A stretch of 64,000 nucleotides of DNA from Candidatus Omnitrophota bacterium (GCA_020632555.1 JACKFI010000002.1:66621-130620), one strand, 5' to 3'. Shown: positions 24,805 to 44,752, counted from the first letter of the stretch. Notes: generated by a model not told the origin, from the sequence alone. Numbers and translations are program-made.

Positions 24805-24894
24805 TTGTCCGCCAATGCTTTGTGGCGGGCTTGTCCGCCGATGCTTTGTGGCGGGCTTGTCCGCCGATGCTTTGTGGCGGGCTTATCCGTCTAT
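24805..24894. repeat. Tandem 26-bp direct repeat, 3 full copies plus a degenerate partial copy; each unit is a hairpin
   Basis: ttgtccgcc(a/g)atgctttgtggcgggc at 24805-24830, 24831-24856 and 24857-24882, then ttatccgtctat. Each unit contains gtccgcc-N10-ggcgggc. Confidence 0.9.
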
Positions 24895-28762: not shown

Positions 28763-31700
28763 TTATTGCAATTGACTCAACTGCAAGTCTTTCTCTACTT
28801 CTTTAACGCCGATGAACAGAGGAAGGTTGGTGGGGACAATTTGTAAAATCACCGGCGAGAAGCCGTCGATTTGAATATTCTGCAATTGCGCCGGATCAAA
28901 GGGCATGTCAAATTTGATGTCCTGCCCGCTGGTTTGCAAATCCAAAGCCTTGGAATTCATGTCGATACCACCGACGTCCTCGGGTCTGCCCGCATCCACT
29001 TGCGTTGGGGCGGAGGCGGCTGGTTGCGCGGTGATTGAACTGCTGCTTCTCAGAGAAGGGGTAAGCGTCCTCAACAACGATCTTGCGCCAAATCTTGCTT
29101 TGGAACGCAAAGTCATATAAGAAGCAACCAAATCTTTTCGATCAGCATCAGATAAAACAGCAAAGGTCGGGGATACGGCGCTTAATCCCTTCAAATACAT
29201 CAGCAGTTCTTCATTAGGCTTCAATTGACTTTGCTTAATAATTCTTAAAATATTTTTTAACTTTATTTCAATCGTGTGGTCGGAGGCGATTTCTTGTTCC
29301 AGCTCTTGTTTAATTTCATTCTTCCCGATTATTTTTACATCCAAAAAACGATTTAATAATGTCACCGCGCCGTTGGCATCTTTCGACTCTATTGAAATTA
29401 ACAAATTTAATAAGGGTTGAACATCCTCCTGGTCGATACTTCCAGCAGAGCCAAAATCAATAAGATATAACTCCTTCTTTGGGGTGATCATCGTATTCCC
29501 GTAATGCAGATCCGCATGATAAAACCCTTCGCCATAAGCTTGCTCAAAAAATTCTCTGATGATTGCATCTTTAATCTGATCAACGTCATAACTTAACAAT
29601 TCAGCTCTCTCTGATGCGGTAAAATTCTTTTCTAATTTTTGTTCAAGGCCCTTCTTTTTTTCAAGTTCTTGTCCTGTCAAAGCAGAATCATCAGTTTTAA
29701 GCAATATTAAATCGTCCAGAGTGACCCCATGCACCAATTCTTCGATAATCACATTGGCGGATTGATGAAAAATCTCTGGGGCTTTTAAAGTAAATCCGTT
29801 TCTTTGTGTCGTCGGACGGTTAGCTAGATTTTCGCGGTAACGTTGAACATTAGCTGCTTCCAACTCGAATTTTAATTCATCCAAAATCATCTTTTCCAAA
29901 TCTTCTCTCATATTAACGGGCAAACCAATATCAGGATGTTTAGCGTTAAGCATTCTTAACGTCTGCTCGACAACAAATAAGTCTTCTTTTAAAAACTTTT
30001 CTGCGGATGGCTGCAAAAACTTACCAGCGGCTTTGTCCCCGGATTGCAACAAAACACGATTGACTTGTTTAACTGATCCTTTCTGCATGCGCTCCAGAAT
30101 TTCGGCTATGACATCCCATAATTCTTCTTCCTGCGCCAGTTGGAACAATGCCTTATTGTGAAATGGCGTGGCATCTTTTTTGAGATTCTTTAATTCAATG
30201 AGAATATCTTCTGCCCCAACAAAAAGCTGAGGCTGTTCGCTCAAATATTGCGCTATTTTTACACCGACGACGCCTAATTGTTCAAGAATGGCCCGCACTT
30301 TCTTCCCACGGTTTTCACCGCGCGATTTTTCATTAGAAAAGATATCCAATAAAGAATTGAACAAAAAAATCCGTCTTTCCACAGAATACCCTTGGAATAT
30401 GCCTTCAAAAATGTCCCTCATAACACCTTGTGCATTTCCCAATTCTCCAGGCGCAAATACATTCCCAAAAAGCTGTGAAACAAAACTTCCCAGTTGATAA
30501 TTATTTTGGATATCAGCCTCAATATTTTGAATATATTCCAATGGGGACATATTATTCCCGTTAAAATTTTGTTCGGCAAAAAACTTAATCTGTTGCACGA
30601 CAGCTTTTATTTGTTCATCCTCAGCCAGACTTAACAGCCGATCAACCTGTTCAAATTTTTCTGCTGTTCCTGAAAATAGGCCAATTTTTTCAACCGCCCT
30701 GCTTAGACTTATCAAAGTGTCCAGCTCCGAGCGCATCGCTGATATGTCTTGGACAATTAATTTCATTTGCTCATAAACAGTTTTAATGCGCTCAGATTCC
30801 GCCTCAGCTTTTGATTTGATTTGACGTATTGCTTCAAGATGGGTTTTTAATTCTCCAATTTGCGCAATAATTCTGTCTAAGTTTGATAAGTCTGTGTCTT
30901 TTAAACCTTCGAAAGCCTGGATAATGTCGTTAATTAAAGGCCGAAGTTCGACAAAATTATCGGCGAGGCCCTGTAATCGCTCAATATTGCTATTAAGTGT
31001 TCGCCCTAATCCGACTTTTGAACTTATGGATAATAATTTTCTTATATCCTGCAATGTGTCCTGCAAGCTCTGAAGATCGGAAATTGCTGAAATCACCGTA
31101 TCTTGACTTTCCAGGATCGTGCTGATATCAAGCGTAGAAAGTTTGGAGATCAACGGCATGAATGCGCCTAACCCTATCATTTTCTTTGCTGTTTGTTTAC
31201 CTTTTGAGCCTCCTTGTTGCTCGATGACAGCAAAAAGTTTAGCCAAATTTTCTAAACTTTGATCAGCCGCCAAATCGTCAAAAGCAGATTGCAGTTTGCT
31301 CTGTTCAGCTTTGTTATTGCCCGTTAAAATCTCTTGAATGGTTTCGGCCCGGCGAGAAATTATTTTAGCAATGATTGTCCTGACTTCTTCGGCTGTAAAT
31401 GTATGCACATCAAATAAACCGTTATACCCTCTTAAAAAATCATAAAAGAATTTGTCCCTCTCCCCTTTTGTCAAACTAAAAATCATGCCTGGCAAGGAAT
31501 CAAAATTTATATGATGATGGGTAGCCATCTTTTGCATTGATTCCGGCATCGGGCGGCTTTTGGGGGACAATAACCATAAAATAAAATCAGCCTTTTCCTT
31601 GCGTGATGGAAATTTGTTAATTGTATTCCATAATTCATTGAGCATGGCGTCCTTAACAATTTCACTTTCTCTTGACAGCCGTTGAAGTTCCAGAATATAA

Positions 31701-34700
31701 CGGTTGACTTGCAATAATTGCGGATAAGTTCTTACCGTCCCCATGTTAATAAACTCACTTAAAACGCTATCTCTGGCCACACTGAATTTTGGAAAATTTG
31801 CAAGAATCTCTTTAAGGCCTTGTTCAAAATCGGAATACACCTCGGGGAAGAATACTTTTTGCATTTCAAATATTTTGCGGCCCAAGACTATTTGGTGTGT
31901 TCCATCCGTCATCAAGGGAATCAAACTTTTATATAATCCAATCAGGTACTTTGCTTGCTCATAAGTGAGTTTATTAATATCAATCTTATGGTTAACCACA
32001 ACTTCGTAAGGCTCATAATCCCAGCCAAAACAATTAACAAATTGGGTAATAATTGAAGGTGTTATTCCTAATAGCTGAGCTTCTTGCCTTGCAATAAGCT
32101 TATCTAATTCATTATCGCGCAATGATGTTTTATCAGGGAAAAATGCGATAACCTTCGAGACCTTGTCTGCAAAAGGAACCGTTTCATTAGATAGATATTG
32201 CTTGAGTTGTCGGTAAGTCCTCCATGCAATGGCAAGTTTCATATCTACTTTTTTGTGTCTGCCCTTGCCTTGCGTAAAATTTCTCGTGTTGAAATAATCA
32301 AATAGAGAATTATTCGGCACCAAATACTTATCAACAAAATTCATCAAAGCATTCTCAAGCTGGCCCTTGGCAATATCGGCTCTGAGTTGGTCAATGGCAG
32401 CGAAAAGCGCAGGATTGCTTTTAACATGCGCCGGTAAATGCCCCATTAATGCATTAATAATTTTTTCCGGATGATTTGAATATGGTTCACTATTTTCATC
32501 ACGACCATAACTATCAATTTTTATTTCCATAAATCCCGCAATATATTCCATATCAATAGTTGGATATGTGAACCCGAAAAAATCCACCAATTTAGGCAGT
32601 TCTCCGTCATCTTCGATTTCTGTAAATCCCTCGAGCAAAGCCGCCACTTGCGTCTCTGGCAAACTTATGGGTAATAAATCTTGAATGATTTTATCTCTCT
32701 CTTTTGACTTTGGCAAAAATTCAAACACGAGAGAAATACTTTCCTCAAAACTCAATCCATTGAAGATGGATTGTTCGCCTTTGAGAAAGGCAGAAAAATA
32801 TTTTGTGAAATCTGTTGCGTCGTGCATAGCTTCTTGATAAGGATTAACAGATATTGTCCCTCTCTGGCCTTTTCCATCGTCCCTATAATAATTATTGTTT
32901 GTGCTAAAATTAGCTAACATAAAAGTAGGGGTGCCGTTTCTCAATTTTGAAAGGGCGATTGTCCCCAATGCAAAATGGTATTCCTGGTATCCTTTCTGAG
33001 AATTCTTAACAACTCTCATAATCGCTCTCATATCGTCCAACGTCGCTTCTTTCCATTCATTCTGATTATCCACGATAAGATCAAACTGAGTAACAACGGC
33101 GCCGACTTCATCCATTTTCTTCACTAATTCCGGCAATCGTATTCCAGTCGCTTTAAGCAGTTGCATATAATCACGTGATAAAGTTTGATGAAGCGATTGC
33201 TCATTTTGGTTTATCCCCGACAAATAGACTTTATCCGTTAAAAAGAAGGGAAGAATCCCCTCAAGAAAAACTTTCTTAGACGCATCATTCATCCCCGCAT
33301 AATCAACCAATTTAAAGAGTTGATACAATATTTTATTACGTGCTTTACTGGCTTTTGGCATAAGACGTGCAACAACGTCAATTTTTGCCTGGTCATCGTT
33401 ATTAGCAAAATAGGTGTTAATAAAATAATTTAAAGCCGCATGAGTTAAGTCTTCATCGTGAAACCCTTCCACGGCGATATAGATTGATTTCAAAACCTCC
33501 GGTGATCTTTCTTGAGCAAGTTGGGAAATAATAAATCCAACAAGTTCATTAAACTGGTCTGAGTTGCTTTCATTCTCTAGACGGACTTCCAGAACTTGTT
33601 TTAACTGCATCACTTTATCCAGGTCAGATAAATCTATTTTTGCACTTTCCGTTTTCTTTTTAAGCATCCGAGATAAAATTTGATAAGAATATTTTGCGTA
33701 ATTCTCTTGTACAGTTTTATTAAACTCTCCAAACTTTAACATGCTTTGAATATTATCCGGCATGCTTGTCATATAAAGCGAAGGTGATTCAAGCATGATA
33801 GCCATAACTGCCTCAAGTTGCTTTTGACCTAACCTCTGGATCAAAGCCTCGATCTGGCCATCAATATTGGCATTAAAGCCGCGAAAGAAGGACATATAAC
33901 GCACCATGGCCAACAATTCGATCTGGTCTTCATCAAGATTCTTATTTGCAAATTGATTTCGTGTCATTTGCATGAATTTCGACTTTAGACGGGTCAAATG
34001 ACTCTCATTCATAGGGAAGGACTTATTTATGGAACTACCAAAAGCCCCGACATTGTTGTTTAAGAAATAAAAAGCTAAAGCGCGCAGATAAAGCGGCAAA
34101 AATTCAGACCTCCCTTGTTCAATTTCTTGTTTCTTTTGTACATCCTCTATATCTCCCTGACTATCTGATTTAATGTCTGCAAGAATAGGCGGCAACTCTA
34201 ATTTTCCATAACGACGCTTTTTCATCCAATCTTTCAGTCCCAGCATAGCGAACCGTGTCGCAGCGCGGAGCTGATCCTCTTTACGCCCATTGAGCGACCG
34301 ATCGTATTCAAAGTAAAAAAATTCCCAAAATTTCTCCATATTTTGCAAAAATTGTTCGCCGTCTATATATTCAACCAAATAACTGCCGTTGGGATTCTTT
34401 TGAGAATTGATGATCATATCTTTGCCGACTTTTCCTTCTGCCGCTTCCAACGAAGGGAATACCTGTCTTTGAATAAAATTAGCCTCCCCATTCAAATTTT
34501 GAGTACGATTGATCGGCAGATCTTGAGATCTCTGCAACAAATTTGACATGTTCTGCTTCATAAATTGCAAAGCACTAATAATTTGCTCTCTATCTTTGTT
34601 TTGTATCCCTCTACCATTACGTATTTGATCTAAGGCATCATCAATTTCCTTTAATAAACCATCCATAATTTCCTTGCGCGATAATCCAATCTCACTTCCC

Positions 34701-37246
34701 AAGACTGATATCTCAGCAATCGCCGCCCCCTTCCCCCCCTGTTGATAAAAATATTGGAATAATTTGCTAATTGTCAGCGGTATTCCCCACTGACCTGCAA
34801 ATGTCCCGATTGTTGTGCCAGGTAAACTGCTGCTATGTCGCCAATCCTCGATATAAACAGCGATGTTATTAGCTGTTAAGGCAAAGGAAAAATATTTCTG
34901 AAAATCTGCCGACTGCGCTACTCCCGCCGAGAAATCGTAAAGCATCCTAAAATAATAATGCGTTAAGAATTCCTCTAATTTGACCGGATCATCAATGGCG
35001 TCTAACTGTGCCATCAACGCATCTAAACTATCAGCCTCAAGCATTTGTTCATGAAAAGTTGTTGATTGTGTCGCATTATTCATAAGTCGATCAGCTAGAA
35101 ACGGTTGGCTAAAGTCCTGATAAGATTTATTGATGTTTGGCACGGCGACATCAGGACTTTGAAGAATTTGCTGAACTTCGCCTATCCGATTGTCAGATTT
35201 AGGATGCGATCCCATAAAAGGAATATCGCCGAGATTATCCAAAAACTCCAAAACATCTACCGCGGCTCTAGGATTAAAACCAGCAACAGCGGAAAGGAAT
35301 AATCCGCCCGTATCCGCATCGTATTCCATATTTTGACGAATCGTTCTTTCGTTTTTGGATTCATCTTCTGTGATTTTATCTTTGCCTTGAAGATGTTGCT
35401 CGCGATGGCGCTGCTCGTGACCGATAATCCAAGCAATATGATCTTGCGTTAATTTCTTACCCTTAGACTCTAAAAAATTCTTTAACGCTTTAATGATGCC
35501 TGTTGTAATAAAAAATTCCCCACTGTCAGTCATCCAATAAGCATCGATATTATCACTGTTTATGATTCGTAAAGTAAGAATGTCCTCCCGCCCCGTTGCT
35601 TTTCTAACTTTCTGAAAAATTTGATTAACCTCTATAAAAACCGGGTGCGTCTCATCCACAAAACCAAAAAGCATTTGATTCGTTTCAATTTCATTTCTAA
35701 TAAAGAAATCATACTTACTAACCGGGGCACTGCCGGACTTCGACTGATTTTCGGGTACTCCTGATATATTTACTGGTGCTAAAGCTGATGAAACAGTGAC
35801 TAATTTACCAACCTTACTACTGGTAACATCTCTAGATAATTGGGCAGGTGTACTGGCGACGGCAAATACAGTCGAAGACGCAACCGCTTTCCCGCCCATC
35901 ACCCCGCCGGAGAAGTATTTGCGGGGGACTGTTTCTTGTGTTTTTTCGTCGAATTCTTCTTTAATGTAGTTATAAACGCCTTTCTTAAACGCGGCAAGAT
36001 ACTGTTGGTAGATCAATTCTTTGTCATTACGAAGCTGCGGGGTTGTCGAACTTTTGTCAATAACAGAGGCAGTGTATTCGACTCCGGCGACTTTATTGGC
36101 GCCCACATAAATTTTGTCTAACATGCCATTCTTTAATTTGCGCTTAAACCAGGTGGCCATAATCATGGCGTGATAGACTTGCCGCAACTTGGCAAAATTC
36201 TTGCCTTCATTGACTTCTTTTTCGATTTCAGGCAGGACGATCTCGCGGATGACTGAGGACGCAATGTCCGAAGGAATGCCGAGGCCATCCGGACGAGGCG
36301 GACTAGAGGACGCAATGTCCGAAGGAATGCCGAGGCCATCCGGACGAGGCGGACTAGAGGACGCAATGTCCGAAGGAATACGGCTTCGCTCTAGCTCGCT
36401 GTATTTCCTCGTCCGCTTGAAAGCTCCCGCAAATTCCGCGGACTCAGTCATGCCGAGGCCATCCGGACGAGGCGGACTAGAAGAACTTATGTCATTGCGA
36501 GGAGCCGAAGGCGACGAAGCAATCTTTGTTCTCGAGATTGCCGCGTCGCCCTGCGGGCTCCTCGCAATGACACTATTTTTTTGTAAAGCAACGTAATCTT
36601 CTGCCAACATCACTTTCAAATGGCTTTCGGTAATAAACGCCATCGTTCCGCTTTCATACACTTTGGCATGATCGGGCATAATCCAAACTTTATTAAACGT
36701 GCTGACCGGAATATCGACATTGCCGTATTTTTCATAGGCTTTTTTGTGCACGCGCTGCCAAAACTTTTTTCCCAATTCCTGCTCAGGATAAATCAGCGAT
36801 GCGGTCAATTGCTTGAGCAAGTAATCCTGCGCCAAAAGATCGCGCCCCATTTCAGTCACACCAAATTCCTGCGGGATCACGCGGTCTTTTTCATACGGCG
36901 ACAAATTGACCCATTGATCATCATCGGGAACGGTTAAAGCGGCGAGAAAATACTTGATCAAAAGACTGGTCTCATCCTGCAGTTTTTGACCTTGCAACTG
37001 CGAATTGCCGGTATCGAGAATGAAATCAAAACGAAACGGATTGTCCGGATAGACTTTTAGCCCTTTAATTGCCAACGGTACATAGCTGGGACTGATGCCC
37101 ACCATGGCACCTGGTATCGGAAGGCTAAGCCCGGCAACACTTTGTGCCCCAGCCAAAGACGGCGTCCAAATCTGACCGGTTAAAAAACACAGCAGAATCA
37201 ATAGGCTGGTTGTTTTGCGAAAATGGGATTTTTTAATCTTTTTCAT
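28763..37246 (-). CDS. Giant multidomain protein (2827 aa): signal-peptide-like N-terminus, conserved N-domain with repeat insertions, M48-like metalloprotease region, ~1600-aa helical region, UbiB/ABC1 kinase-like domain, family-specific C-terminal tail
   Basis: Single uninterrupted ORF. N-terminus MKKIKKSHFRKTTSLLILLCFLTGQIWTPSLAGAQS. HEQRH at aa 610-614. LGVVGVKIAQYLSEQ...HADLHYGN...IDFGSAG at aa ~2310-2600. The sub-features are listed separately below. Confidence 0.85.
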   Translation of the reverse strand: MKKIKKSHFRKTTSLLILLCFLTGQIWTPSLAGAQSVAGLSLPIPGAMVGISPSYVPLAIKGLKVYPDNPFRFDFILDTGNSQLQGQKLQDETSLLIKYFLAALTVPDDDQWVNLSPYEKDRVIPQEFGVTEMGRDLLAQDYLLKQLTASLIYPEQELGKKFWQRVHKKAYEKYGNVDIPVSTFNKVWIMPDHAKVYESGTMAFITESHLKVMLAEDYVALQKNSVIARSPQGDAAISRTKIASSPSAPRNDISSSSPPRPDGLGMTESAEFAGAFKRTRKYSELERSRIPSDIASSSPPRPDGLGIPSDIASSSPPRPDGLGIPSDIASSVIREIVLPEIEKEVNEGKNFAKLRQVYHAMIMATWFKRKLKNGMLDKIYVGANKVAGVEYTASVIDKSSTTPQLRNDKELIYQQYLAAFKKGVYNYIKEEFDEKTQETVPRKYFSGGVMGGKAVASSTVFAVASTPAQLSRDVTSSKVGKLVTVSSALAPVNISGVPENQSKSGSAPVSKYDFFIRNEIETNQMLFGFVDETHPVFIEVNQIFQKVRKATGREDILTLRIINSDNIDAYWMTDSGEFFITTGIIKALKNFLESKGKKLTQDHIAWIIGHEQRHREQHLQGKDKITEDESKNERTIRQNMEYDADTGGLFLSAVAGFNPRAAVDVLEFLDNLGDIPFMGSHPKSDNRIGEVQQILQSPDVAVPNINKSYQDFSQPFLADRLMNNATQSTTFHEQMLEADSLDALMAQLDAIDDPVKLEEFLTHYYFRMLYDFSAGVAQSADFQKYFSFALTANNIAVYIEDWRHSSSLPGTTIGTFAGQWGIPLTISKLFQYFYQQGGKGAAIAEISVLGSEIGLSRKEIMDGLLKEIDDALDQIRNGRGIQNKDREQIISALQFMKQNMSNLLQRSQDLPINRTQNLNGEANFIQRQVFPSLEAAEGKVGKDMIINSQKNPNGSYLVEYIDGEQFLQNMEKFWEFFYFEYDRSLNGRKEDQLRAATRFAMLGLKDWMKKRRYGKLELPPILADIKSDSQGDIEDVQKKQEIEQGRSEFLPLYLRALAFYFLNNNVGAFGSSINKSFPMNESHLTRLKSKFMQMTRNQFANKNLDEDQIELLAMVRYMSFFRGFNANIDGQIEALIQRLGQKQLEAVMAIMLESPSLYMTSMPDNIQSMLKFGEFNKTVQENYAKYSYQILSRMLKKKTESAKIDLSDLDKVMQLKQVLEVRLENESNSDQFNELVGFIISQLAQERSPEVLKSIYIAVEGFHDEDLTHAALNYFINTYFANNDDQAKIDVVARLMPKASKARNKILYQLFKLVDYAGMNDASKKVFLEGILPFFLTDKVYLSGINQNEQSLHQTLSRDYMQLLKATGIRLPELVKKMDEVGAVVTQFDLIVDNQNEWKEATLDDMRAIMRVVKNSQKGYQEYHFALGTIALSKLRNGTPTFMLANFSTNNNYYRDDGKGQRGTISVNPYQEAMHDATDFTKYFSAFLKGEQSIFNGLSFEESISLVFEFLPKSKERDKIIQDLLPISLPETQVAALLEGFTEIEDDGELPKLVDFFGFTYPTIDMEYIAGFMEIKIDSYGRDENSEPYSNHPEKIINALMGHLPAHVKSNPALFAAIDQLRADIAKGQLENALMNFVDKYLVPNNSLFDYFNTRNFTQGKGRHKKVDMKLAIAWRTYRQLKQYLSNETVPFADKVSKVIAFFPDKTSLRDNELDKLIARQEAQLLGITPSIITQFVNCFGWDYEPYEVVVNHKIDINKLTYEQAKYLIGLYKSLIPLMTDGTHQIVLGRKIFEMQKVFFPEVYSDFEQGLKEILANFPKFSVARDSVLSEFINMGTVRTYPQLLQVNRYILELQRLSRESEIVKDAMLNELWNTINKFPSRKEKADFILWLLSPKSRPMPESMQKMATHHHINFDSLPGMIFSLTKGERDKFFYDFLRGYNGLFDVHTFTAEEVRTIIAKIISRRAETIQEILTGNNKAEQSKLQSAFDDLAADQSLENLAKLFAVIEQQGGSKGKQTAKKMIGLGAFMPLISKLSTLDISTILESQDTVISAISDLQSLQDTLQDIRKLLSISSKVGLGRTLNSNIERLQGLADNFVELRPLINDIIQAFEGLKDTDLSNLDRIIAQIGELKTHLEAIRQIKSKAEAESERIKTVYEQMKLIVQDISAMRSELDTLISLSRAVEKIGLFSGTAEKFEQVDRLLSLAEDEQIKAVVQQIKFFAEQNFNGNNMSPLEYIQNIEADIQNNYQLGSFVSQLFGNVFAPGELGNAQGVMRDIFEGIFQGYSVERRIFLFNSLLDIFSNEKSRGENRGKKVRAILEQLGVVGVKIAQYLSEQPQLFVGAEDILIELKNLKKDATPFHNKALFQLAQEEELWDVIAEILERMQKGSVKQVNRVLLQSGDKAAGKFLQPSAEKFLKEDLFVVEQTLRMLNAKHPDIGLPVNMREDLEKMILDELKFELEAANVQRYRENLANRPTTQRNGFTLKAPEIFHQSANVIIEELVHGVTLDDLILLKTDDSALTGQELEKKKGLEQKLEKNFTASERAELLSYDVDQIKDAIIREFFEQAYGEGFYHADLHYGNTMITPKKELYLIDFGSAGSIDQEDVQPLLNLLISIESKDANGAVTLLNRFLDVKIIGKNEIKQELEQEIASDHTIEIKLKNILRIIKQSQLKPNEELLMYLKGLSAVSPTFAVLSDADRKDLVASYMTLRSKARFGARSLLRTLTPSLRSSSSITAQPAASAPTQVDAGRPEDVGGIDMNSKALDLQTSGQDIKFDMPFDPAQLQNIQIDGFSPVILQIVPTNLPLFIGVKEVEKDLQLSQLQ
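28766..28975 (-). other. C-terminal tail module of the giant protein (GGIDMN...GFSPVILQIVPTNLPLFIGVKEVEKDLQLSQLQ)
   Basis: Distinct ~70-aa tail after a Ser/Ala/Pro-rich linker. A diverged relic copy of its last ~30 codons lies at 27899..28015. Confidence 0.5.
29266..30316 (-). other. UbiB/ABC1/ADCK atypical-kinase-like domain within the giant ORF
   Basis: RAILEQLGVVGVKIAQYLSEQPQLF...LKKDATPF (the KxGQ-like N-lobe extension), FYHADLHYGNTMI (HxDxHxGN catalytic loop at 29501-29518) and LYLIDFGSAGSI (DFG). Confidence 0.7.
35146..35626 (-). other. M48/Ste24-like zinc-metalloprotease region within the giant ORF
   Basis: AWIIGHEQRHREQH (HExxH encoded at 35405-35419), then NMEYDADTGGLFLSAVAGFNP and FMGSHPKSDNRIGEV. 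This is the HExxH...E..AD...HP...R order seen in M48 peptidases. Confidence 0.55.
36255..36481. repeat. In-frame 51-bp tandem repeat (17-aa unit IPSDIASSSPPRPDGLG); the third copy is split by a 72-bp insert
   Basis: 36255-36305 and 36306-36356 are identical. The third copy runs 36357-36379 and resumes at 36451-36481, after 72 nt that encode MTESAEFAGAFKRTRKYSELERSR. Confidence 0.9.
36491..36571. repeat. 81-bp REP/MITE-like palindromic element inserted in frame in the giant ORF
   Basis: gtcattgcgaggagcc...ggctcctcgcaatgac has terminal inverted repeats of at least 16 bp, plus inner arms cgaagcaatct / agattgccgcg. It is exactly 27 codons (VIARSPQGDAAISRTKIASSPSAPRND). It belongs to the same family as the long palindrome in the 44.4-44.75 kb repeats. 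Confidence 0.85.
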
Positions 37247-43534: not shown

Positions 43535-43807
43535 TTAAGAAGTTTTGTTTTGGTAAGTCTCGCTGCGGCCATCCGCGGCACCTTTTAAAAATTTTATTTT
43601 TGTCAGATAAACACTTACGCCGCACGCTAATAAAGCCGCGGCACTTAAAATCACGCTGGGCAGCAAATGGTCATATTCTTTTTCAAAATACATTTCCAGC
43701 GCCGAGATTAAGACCCAAATCTGCAAAAACACCGCGCCCAAACTGATCACTAAAGCCACCCCCTCGACCATATTGACAAATTCTTCCTTTTTATTCGAAA
43801 ATCTCAT
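43535..43807 (-). CDS. Small 2-TM membrane protein, function unknown
   Basis: 90 aa with two hydrophobic helices. The ATGA overlap with the upstream Rieske gene suggests translational coupling. Confidence 0.5.
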   Translation of the reverse strand: MRFSNKKEEFVNMVEGVALVISLGAVFLQIWVLISALEMYFEKEYDHLLPSVILSAAALLACGVSVYLTKIKFLKGAADGRSETYQNKTS

Positions 43808-44343: not shown

Positions 44344-44435
44344 AACCTGTCCTTTTCTTTAAATCCGTACTGTCAAAAGTCTTTCTTCACTGTGTCGCTA
44401 CCAACCCTGTCATCCCTAAATTCTTTGCCAACCCT

Positions 44436-44590
44436 ATCATCCCCGAGTAGCTTCTATCGGGGATCCATTCATAGTGTCTTTGCGAACCCCGTAGGGGCGC
44501 GACAATCTTGTTGATCTGAGATTGCTTCACTTCGTTCGCAATGACACGACAGGTATGTCTTTATCAATAAATAGGAGCTGTCCCACCTTT
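44436..44590. repeat. Composite palindromic repeat, copy A (short hairpin + ~70-nt long palindrome + conserved tail)
   Basis: atccccga-gtagcttcta-tcggggat hairpin, then gtctttgcgaac...gttcgcaatgac long imperfect palindrome, then ...aataaataggagctgtcccacc. About 97% identical to copy B at a 162-bp period. Confidence 0.9.
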
Positions 44591-44597
44591 CTACTCT

Positions 44598-44752
44598 GTC
44601 ATCCCCGAGTAGCTTCTGTCGGGGATCCATTCAGAGTGTCTTTGCGAGCCCCGTAGGGGCGCGGCAATCTTGTTGATCTGAGATTGCTTCACTTCGTTCG
44701 CAATGACACGACAGGTATGTCTTTATCAATAAATAGGAGCTGTCCCACCTTT
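44598..44752. repeat. Composite palindromic repeat, copy B
   Basis: Same structure as copy A, with about 4 mismatches by eye. It ends at the stop codon of the 4Fe-4S subunit gene. Confidence 0.9.

Follow-up and report, generated by a model that had tools for sequence, protein, structure and literature searches.

How a coding region can harbour several kinds of repeat and still be read through is the question raised by a giant-protein gene on a 64,000-nucleotide stretch of DNA from a Candidatus Omnitrophota bacterium (GCA_020632555.1 JACKFI010000002.1:66621-130620); the whole stretch is called the window here, and positions are counted from its first letter. The gene (28763..37246, minus strand), defined by the open reading frame (ORF) list and by translation, encodes a protein of 2827 amino acids and is open throughout. 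Within the part encoding the N-terminal domain (N-domain) lie an 81-bp palindromic element, 51-bp tandem units and a 72-bp insert, for which a sequence-only reading had proposed that selfish or structured repeats invaded the coding region. According to the account favoured here, which is very probably correct, the segment is a mosaic of a hairpin dimer, a local tandem triplication and a dispersed 72-bp piece, all located in a tolerant, disordered loop.

On the gene strand, the segment begins with the left arm of the 81-bp element (36535..36571, minus strand, 37 nt; GTCATTGCGAG-GAGCCCGCAGGGCGACG-CGGCAATCT), which consists of a tGTC tag, an ATTGC/GCAAT stem, an inner mini-hairpin GCCC-GCA-GGGC and a C after the palindrome. 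A spacer of 9 nt (cgagaacaa; 36526..36534, minus strand) leads to the inverted right arm (36491..36525, minus strand, 35 nt; AGATTGCTTCGTCGCCTTCGGCTCCTCGCAATGAC), which has its own mini-hairpin GCC-GAA-GGC on the opposite strand and fits the half-element pattern used for the genome scan described below. Arm, spacer and arm amount to 81 bp or 27 codons, translated as VIARSPQGDAAISRTKIASSPSAPRND. Another 9 nt (ataagttct; 36482..36490, minus strand) separate the right arm from a tandem array with the order A-[72 nt]-B-A-B-A-B (36481..36257), in which A comprises 30 nt (SSPPRPDGLG) and B 21 nt (IPSDIAS). Part A of the first unit (36452..36481, minus strand) is parted from its B by the 72-bp insert (36380..36451, minus strand; MTESAEFAGAFKRTRKYSELERSR), a second dispersed element designated E2. 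The remaining B-A-B-A-B (36257..36379, minus strand) was delimited by Tandem Repeats Finder (TRF), a repeat search and the family motif x[ND][VI]S[ST]x[IV][IV][RK]E[IV]; by this motif, the last B, with an additional S at 36254-36256, is a native copy.

TRF reports a period of 51 bp with 2.5 copies and 98% matches; in the repeat search and with blastn, the three A parts are 100% identical to one another, as are the three B parts. The sequence-only reading had noted identity for two of the three units; this is borne out and can be extended to the third, which differs only by the 72-bp interruption. All three kinds of insert listed before are present, with slightly refined boundaries: the left flank (...ALQKNS) stands, but the right flank is VIREIV, the final IPSDIASS being native. 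The lengths of 81, 51 and 72 bp are multiples of three, as had been stated, and the ORF of 2827 codons is uninterrupted. Identical tandem copies and hairpins are difficult to assemble, and a repeat-induced mis-join or collapsed reads might produce a similar picture. Such an artefact is scarcely credible here, because the reading frame is kept over all junctions of the ORF and because the same site architecture is found in independent assemblies of relatives.

The inserted DNA also differs from its surroundings in composition and structure. Its GC content is 0.55-0.62 compared with 0.40-0.44 in the flanks and about 42% in the whole gene. The 81-bp element, a nearly perfect hairpin, folds with -58.3 kcal/mol compared with -25.1 +/- 2.9 kcal/mol for shuffled sequences (z = -11.4), and 0 of 200 shuffles were as good. 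In an AlphaFold model built with the family alignment, residues 227-324 have predicted local distance difference test (pLDDT) values of 31-42 and no secondary structure, with well-predicted helices on either side; the domain core reaches pLDDT values of 70-86. The segment is thus modelled as a disordered loop at the protein surface, in agreement with the disorder proposed earlier.

The arms of the 81-bp element belong to a widespread family. One genome per species was scanned with the half-element AGATTGCTTC-N(4-30)-TCGCAATGAC, and the resulting counts, at least 153 arms in at least 120 loci, are lower bounds. In the matches listed, arms occur in Chloroflexota, Patescibacteria, Omnitrophota, Nitrospirota, Planctomycetota, Bacteroidota (including cultured Pedobacter and Flavobacterium), Proteobacteria, Cyanobacteria, Firmicutes, and others. 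An inverted partner, mostly at a distance of 0-50 nt, was found for 79 of the 153 arms among these matches. Two loci (L033 and L090) contain two arms about 305 nt apart with an ORF for a 95-aa GIY-YIG protein between them. This arrangement is common, as seen in a protein-side test with the best 80 metagenome loci, which were picked solely by similarity to the 95-aa protein. A left arm is located at most 130 nt upstream of the GIY-YIG gene in 59 of these loci and a right arm at most 130 nt downstream in 66; arms are present on both sides in 53 and on at least one side in 72. Together, the 80 loci contain 358 arms with the consensus Y-GTC-ATTGC-GAG...-GCAAT-C-Y. In the matrix of these arms, the G, T and C of the tag are conserved to 93-99%, the C after the palindrome to 96% and the Y before GTC to about 91%, and beyond the outer GTC conservation drops abruptly. 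Inside the arms is a variable mini-hairpin, and its loops mostly read G-N-A on the purine-rich strand. Of the arm cores, 29-35% have end stems of 3 bp or more, compared with 1-2% of shuffles, and 48 distinct compensated stems occur. The arms that enclose distant GIY-YIG homologs on replicons of Planktothrix, Spirosoma, and Rhizobium are built like the ATTGC arms but have different stems, for example ATCCC...GGGAT, and the stems covary between the subclasses (ATTGC:GCAAT vs ATCCC:GGGAT).

Small GIY-YIG proteins (cd10448) have been described as site-specific nucleases for single-stranded DNA (ssDNA) and named Ssn (Chenal 2025 Nat Commun, PMC11893778). The ssn genes are flanked by hairpins, called NTS in Neisseria and SRM in general; 29% of ssn homologs were reported to lack SRMs. 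SsnA cuts ssDNA beside such hairpins; cleavage depends on a GTC upstream of the palindrome, and no base is more crucial for binding than the C that directly follows the palindrome. The NTS-ssnA-NTS layout has been noted to resemble an insertion sequence (PMC11893778). The tblastn match of the GIY-YIG query in N. gonorrhoeae sits amid canonical NTS copies, and the NTS-flanked gene of this organism aligns with the GIY-YIG profile with an hhalign probability of 99.8%, E = 1e-28 and 44% identity. On the strength of these comparisons, the arm-bracketed small GIY-YIG protein family is taken to be the published Ssn family. Likewise, the ATTGC arm is classified by its sequence features as a divergent SRM subclass, in which the functional landmarks are kept and the interior is long. 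The published SRM string, HGTCWYN(0-2)YYVSBRHN(0-5)WNVSBRGN(0-2)RNCYNB, is matched in only one of the 80 ssn-homolog loci, whereas arms from Rhizobium and Neisseria do match; the ATTGC arms miss it because their interior is too long and their stem letters differ. One of the distant homologs, an arm-flanked ssn gene on plasmid p1 of Planktothrix agardhii (L203, 18847-19131), is located between an MmeI-type restriction-modification gene and the DISARM gene drmA and thus lies within a defence island.

Copies of the arms are also found in frame in other genes. Among 161 elements in the listed genome loci, clear cases are present in guaA encoding GMP synthase (L043 4466-4543), in an ATP-dependent DNA ligase gene (L075 2016-2051) and in a PfkB kinase gene (L091 946-977); the hosts are a Gammaproteobacterium, a Curtissbacteria metagenome-assembled genome (MAG), and a third genome. 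The copy in GMP synthase is a 78-nt dimer that is translated as VIARPRSGAAISKNSEIASEGAPRND in the same reading frame as in the window. The lengths of the two-arm elements among the matches listed are not skewed towards multiples of three (52/52/35), which indicates that the in-frame state within genes is a filter and not a property of the element. In-frame insertion has precedents in repetitive extragenic palindromes (REPs) with a CGTC tag (Di Nocera 2013 BMC Genomics, PMC3733652), whose definition comprises a CGTC or TGTC tag, A-T at the start of the stem and a short tail; dimers predominate, and the elements occur in five phyla. Copies located in frame within genes encode 20-30 amino acids, Neisseria dRS3 and the Rickettsia palindromic elements (RPEs) RPE-4 and RPE-6 are members, and no dedicated enzyme was found for them (PMC3733652). 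In-frame genic copies are not described in the main text of PMC11893778. The association of arms and GIY-YIG genes was considered as a new mobile element, but this was dropped as already covered by PMC11893778 and PMC3733652. Apart from genuine in-frame copies, arms are turned into false N-termini or small ORFs by gene callers, for example MFIASEAKQSFF... and ...DCFASLAMK... (L209 501-530, P0064; ORF starts in L002 and L005), and arm arrays yield spurious ORFs of 100-180 amino acids in L006, L096, and L112.

A strong hairpin within a coding region might also be kept for a role in the mRNA, for example as a pause in translation, as a target of RNase III or as a stabiliser tuning the expression of the giant gene. 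The sense strand, with its G-U pairs, folds somewhat better than the antisense strand (-58.3 vs -55.9 kcal/mol), and many REPs have been argued to be transcribed and to act as RNA (PMC3733652). Yet elements of this type are mostly intergenic and occur in either orientation, SsnA is inactive on RNA (PMC11893778), and there is nothing specific to this gene. A search of Rfam returned nothing at gathering score and only sub-threshold look-alikes of microRNA hairpins; the element has no family there. An mRNA role is therefore considered improbable.

The position of the repeats becomes clearer in relatives of the host protein. In an alignment of 18 N-domain proteins, the insert is located in a variable loop flanked by two conserved blocks. 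Between the same anchors, this loop has a median length of 38 amino acids and a maximum of 79 in 90 family members, compared with 120 in the window. Without the loop, the identity to the window protein is 81.6% for P0007, 78.4% for P0001 and 57-65% for the others. The loop of P0001 consists of 22 amino acids, has a DNA with 36% G+C that folds no better than shuffles, and bears no trace of a repeat. This supports the view that the segment is an insertion, but the net excess over this closest plain ortholog is about 85 amino acids instead of the roughly 105 assumed before. The gene of P0007 (L211) carries a canonical ATCCC-type SRM dimer at the exact site of the ATTGC dimer of the window, together with the remnant of a further arm. 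In P0097 (L212), a complete ATTGC dimer sits in the frame used in the window and is likewise followed by ATAAGT, and P0046 (L213) and P0067 (L214) have a left arm. Other GC-rich hairpins (G+C 0.53-0.60, fold z -2.5 to -4.4) are located in the loops of P0022, P0043, P0064, and P0119. The proposed invasion is therefore not new in this genome alone, since relatives with about 60% and 82% identity contain hairpin arms at the same position. The loop is either a hot spot or the site of an old insertion that was overwritten by recombination with other copies.

The main rival is partly compatible with the mosaic account: the repeats could be an old component of the loop, inherited vertically and now kept by exaptation as a functional linker, so that a recent origin would be limited to the 51-bp amplification and the 72-bp insertion. 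In homologs with about 60% identity, the site contains in-frame arms of the subclass seen in the window (the dimer and ATAAGT in P0097, the left arm in P0046 and P0067), the spacers are alike (cgagaacaa vs ctaaaagaacaac), and the SSPPRPDGLG unit is common to P0007. Against this, P0001 is without any repeat trace at 78% identity, the arm subclass at the site is not the same in the window as in P0007, its nearest relative, and unrelated GC-rich hairpins are found there in other homologs. Furthermore, the hairpins are kept at the DNA level despite free variation of the insert peptides, and pLDDT is very low. On balance, an old linker is considered rather unlikely.

The edges of the loop have a peculiarity of their own. 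At either edge of the mosaic (36242-36253, minus strand, and 36491-36496), native codons mimic the arm terminus (gtcatccgcgag, encoding VIRE, vs gtcattgcgag), and the right terminus ...AATGAC matches the ND codons (AAT GAC) of the family. The mimicry may reflect an insertion target or may be a coincidence.

In contrast to the arms, the 51-bp unit is of local origin. Part B carries the native family motif x[ND][VI]S[ST], and part A (30 nt) is common to P0007/L211. The P0007 gene contains one contiguous 51-bp unit with 94% identity, which is directly followed by the conserved VIREIVL codons. From this single unit without the 72 nt it follows that the 51-bp unit is older than the split of the window and P0007 lineages and that only the window lineage underwent the triplication and the 72-bp insertion. 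The proposal of a length-variable site is thereby supported at the level of relatives, with one unit in P0007 (82%) compared with three in the window. P0001 with a plain loop, P0007 with one unit and the window with three units and the 72-bp insert form a stepwise series. The 51-bp unit was also considered as a dispersed repeat; this was ruled out, since a 26-mer of the unit has 0 exact matches in metagenome contigs and a protein search with the 106-aa insert returned only low-complexity matches and P0124, a DUF1016-type ORF running into a repeat, which was found via the 72-bp part.

The 72-bp piece itself has a counterpart elsewhere: 75 nt (window 36383..36457) have a copy with 92% identity in the DNA encoding P0124, which belongs to another genome (L202, GCA_020049755.1). 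In both genomes, the homology starts 6 nt ahead of the insert boundary (CTCGGC|ATGAC); this offset may mark either a target that is preferred or the actual end of the 72-bp element. With two copies only, a consensus fold of the element shows no covariation. Part A and the 72-bp piece have some likeness to a degenerate arm (GTCATGCCGAGG...), but they contain no palindrome and do not match the SRM string, and such a relationship is not claimed. Directly downstream of the 72-bp copy in L202 (2430-2650), there are tandem repeats of about 115 bp with at least 3 units and an assembly gap.

From the features of the 51-bp unit it could be argued that the whole segment arose by local duplication and inversion of native sequence without any dispersed elements: the unit contains native sequence, has been amplified locally, and its 26-mer is without exact metagenome match. 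This explanation stands for the 51-bp unit only; it is at odds with the 81-bp and 72-bp parts, because the arm consensus is common to hundreds of copies in unrelated phyla, because a copy of the 72-bp piece with 92% identity exists in another genome, and because the GC content jumps at the insert. As an origin of the entire segment, it is very improbable. The earlier proposal of invading repeats is accordingly retained for the 81-bp and 72-bp parts, for which related copies exist in many phyla and in another genome, respectively, but not for the 51-bp unit, which is local sequence amplified in tandem.

In the mosaic account, the following sequence of events would have shaped the loop. The 81-bp palindrome would be a dimer of inverted hairpins of the SRM/NTS or CGTC-REP type, the kind that flanks ssn genes. 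Hairpins of this kind would multiply within genomes and cluster next to one another, and genic copies would be kept only if they are in frame, free of stop codons, and located at a site tolerating extra residues. The 51-bp unit, composed of 21 nt of native sequence and 30 nt common to P0007, would have been amplified from one to three copies, most likely by replication slippage, and a 72-bp piece of a second dispersed element would have entered one of the units. Hairpin insertion would have been driven or spread by an Ssn-type nuclease or by ssDNA intermediates, with or without Ssn. We infer this order of events and also the neutrality of the extra peptide.

Several observations weigh against this account. 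None of the arms in the window matches the published SRM string, and their stems deviate from those of CGTC REPs, whose uninterrupted stem of 8-9 bp, loop of 4-5 nt and CCA tail are not present in ATTGC arms. No ssn gene is encoded in the 64-kb window. Around the 139 two-arm elements among the matches listed, no target-site duplication beyond chance is detectable. Mobility of the hairpins is inferred, and no pair of filled and empty sites within one species was found. Transposition was not shown by Chenal et al. either, and the role demonstrated in Neisseria is the cutting of incoming ssDNA (PMC11893778). Finally, the arms at the same site in homologs with about 60% identity could mean one ancient insertion and not repeated invasion.

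A broader reading, which links the locus to Ssn biology in general, is doubtful when taken as a whole. It would hold, first, that the ATTGC arm is a major uncatalogued class of Ssn-associated hairpins bracketing most members of a large ssn clade in many phyla, including the candidate phyla radiation (CPR), Chloroflexota, and Omnitrophota. Second, hairpin dimers would be a pan-bacterial source of in-frame peptides, of which the Rickettsia RPEs are one example and to which the copies in the guaA, DNA ligase, and PfkB genes point. Third, insertion would be site-directed beside mimics of the arm terminus (the native AATGAC/GTCAT at both loop edges), which would explain the recurrent colonisation of one Omnitrophota loop.

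Further arms are located outside the giant gene. Two intergenic two-arm elements of 70 bp, of which the first belongs to the ATTGC subclass (44476..44545, plus strand; left arm 44476-44508, right arm 44519-44545) and the second is its copy (44638..44707, plus strand), lie within a 162-bp tandem duplication (44431..44752). As had been noticed before, they share their termini and inner arms with the genic element, namely GTC(A/T)TTGCGA, CAATCT/AGATTGC, and TCGCAATGAC. Next to them is a single arm of the sister subclass (44437..44466, plus strand; tcATCCCCGA-gtagcttcta-TCGGGGAT-CC) with an 8-bp stem, a 10-nt loop and a CCA tail, of which a second copy (44598..44628) and a truncated start (44409..44419) are present. 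Its architecture is that of the arms flanking ssn homologs in Rhizobium and Spirosoma. The sole window match to the published SRM string (43556-43585, plus strand; AGTCTCGCTGCGGCCATCCGCGGCACCTTT; 0.2 expected from shuffles) is located inside a minus-strand ORF of 90 amino acids. A relaxed arm regular expression applied to the window was too noisy to bring out additional degenerate copies.

The window also contains repeats of other kinds. A GC-rich tandem repeat at 24805-24889 has a 26-bp unit (TTGTCCGCCGATGCTTTGTGGCGGGC) in 3.3 copies with 96% matches, and the unit can fold into a CCGCC/GGCGG hairpin. Three pairs of direct repeats with 95-98% identity, 1.0-1.7 kb apart (60632-60931/62345-62644, 24961-25099/26214-26352, and 25340-25479/26348-26487), are probably recently duplicated neighbouring genes.

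The host protein is secreted; besides a signal peptide and the N-domain, it comprises an ABC1 kinase-like domain and a motif of peptidase M48, with Pfam E values of 3.6e-28 for ABC1 and 2.3e-8 for Peptidase_M48. The N-domain (35882-37246, minus strand) has no match in Pfam, and its AlphaFold model has no fold match in the PDB. More than 1362 homologs of this domain were found, and those named by source are mostly labelled Omnitrophica/Omnitrophota; their C-terminal partners are very different from protein to protein. The C-terminus of the giant protein (28763-28950, minus strand) contains the motif GGID(L/M)...DLQT.G...(S/T)PVI..I.P, which is common to the otherwise different proteins P0009, P0031, P0066, and P0099. 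The motif may serve as a signal for sorting or anchoring.

Among known systems, the SRM/NTS hairpins are similar to the 81-bp element in several respects. The GTC tag before the palindrome (HGTC) is present on both arms in the window as tGTC-ATTGC..., and the C directly 3' of the palindrome is present in both as GCAAT-C. The palindrome starts with AT, and single, inverted-dimer and clustered arrangements occur as in ATTGC arms. Genes for single-domain GIY-YIG proteins of about 95 amino acids are bracketed on both sides in the loci of other genomes but not inside the window. In contrast to SRM/NTS, the ATTGC/GCAAT stem encloses an interior of 10-30 nt with its own mini-hairpin, the arms have 27-50 nt instead of about 28, and the host phylum is Omnitrophota. 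CGTC REPs share the TGTC tag and A-T at the first two stem pairs with both the genic and the intergenic copies of the window, and the 27 amino acids encoded by the window dimer fall within the range of 20-30 for intragenic REPs. The ATTGC arms differ from them by a 5-bp outer stem, a purine-rich interior of 10-30 nt and a CT tail.

RPEs have been reported as palindromes located in frame in unrelated genes, with a peptide compatible with the protein fold (Ogata et al. 2000, as summarised in PMC10969869). The likeness to the window element is one of behaviour, as an in-frame palindromic insert, and not of compared sequences; the RPEs reported first have about 150 bp and are from Rickettsia. REPs and REPINs associated with RAYT are also short hairpins, often arranged as inverted doublets, and flank the single-copy gene of an enzyme thought to act on ssDNA, but their tag is GTAG, and RAYT is an HUH tyrosine transposase and not a GIY-YIG protein. 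The label of a transposable element of the miniature inverted-repeat type (MITE), which had been suggested initially, agrees with the terminal inverted arms but is not upheld with respect to target-site duplication. The tandem array resembles variable-number tandem repeats (VNTRs) in surface proteins, with identical head-to-tail units of 51 bp, a length divisible by three and a copy number that varies between relatives; it differs from them in that one unit is broken by a dispersed element and in that the array adjoins a hairpin dimer.

Thus, the in-frame insertion of a CGTC-REP/SRM hairpin after the manner of RPEs, combined with a tandem repeat, is of a kind already known and reveals no new mechanism. 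Modestly new are the ATTGC subclass missed by the published string, its presence in Omnitrophota and the repeated use of one protein loop. As the string misses the commonest arm type found here, surveys using it under-count these repeats. The three-step series of a plain loop, one unit, and three units with an insert makes the order of events readable, and hairpin repeats tied to ssDNA nucleases are seen to build protein sequence in Omnitrophota, a phylum in which such repeats were previously undescribed.

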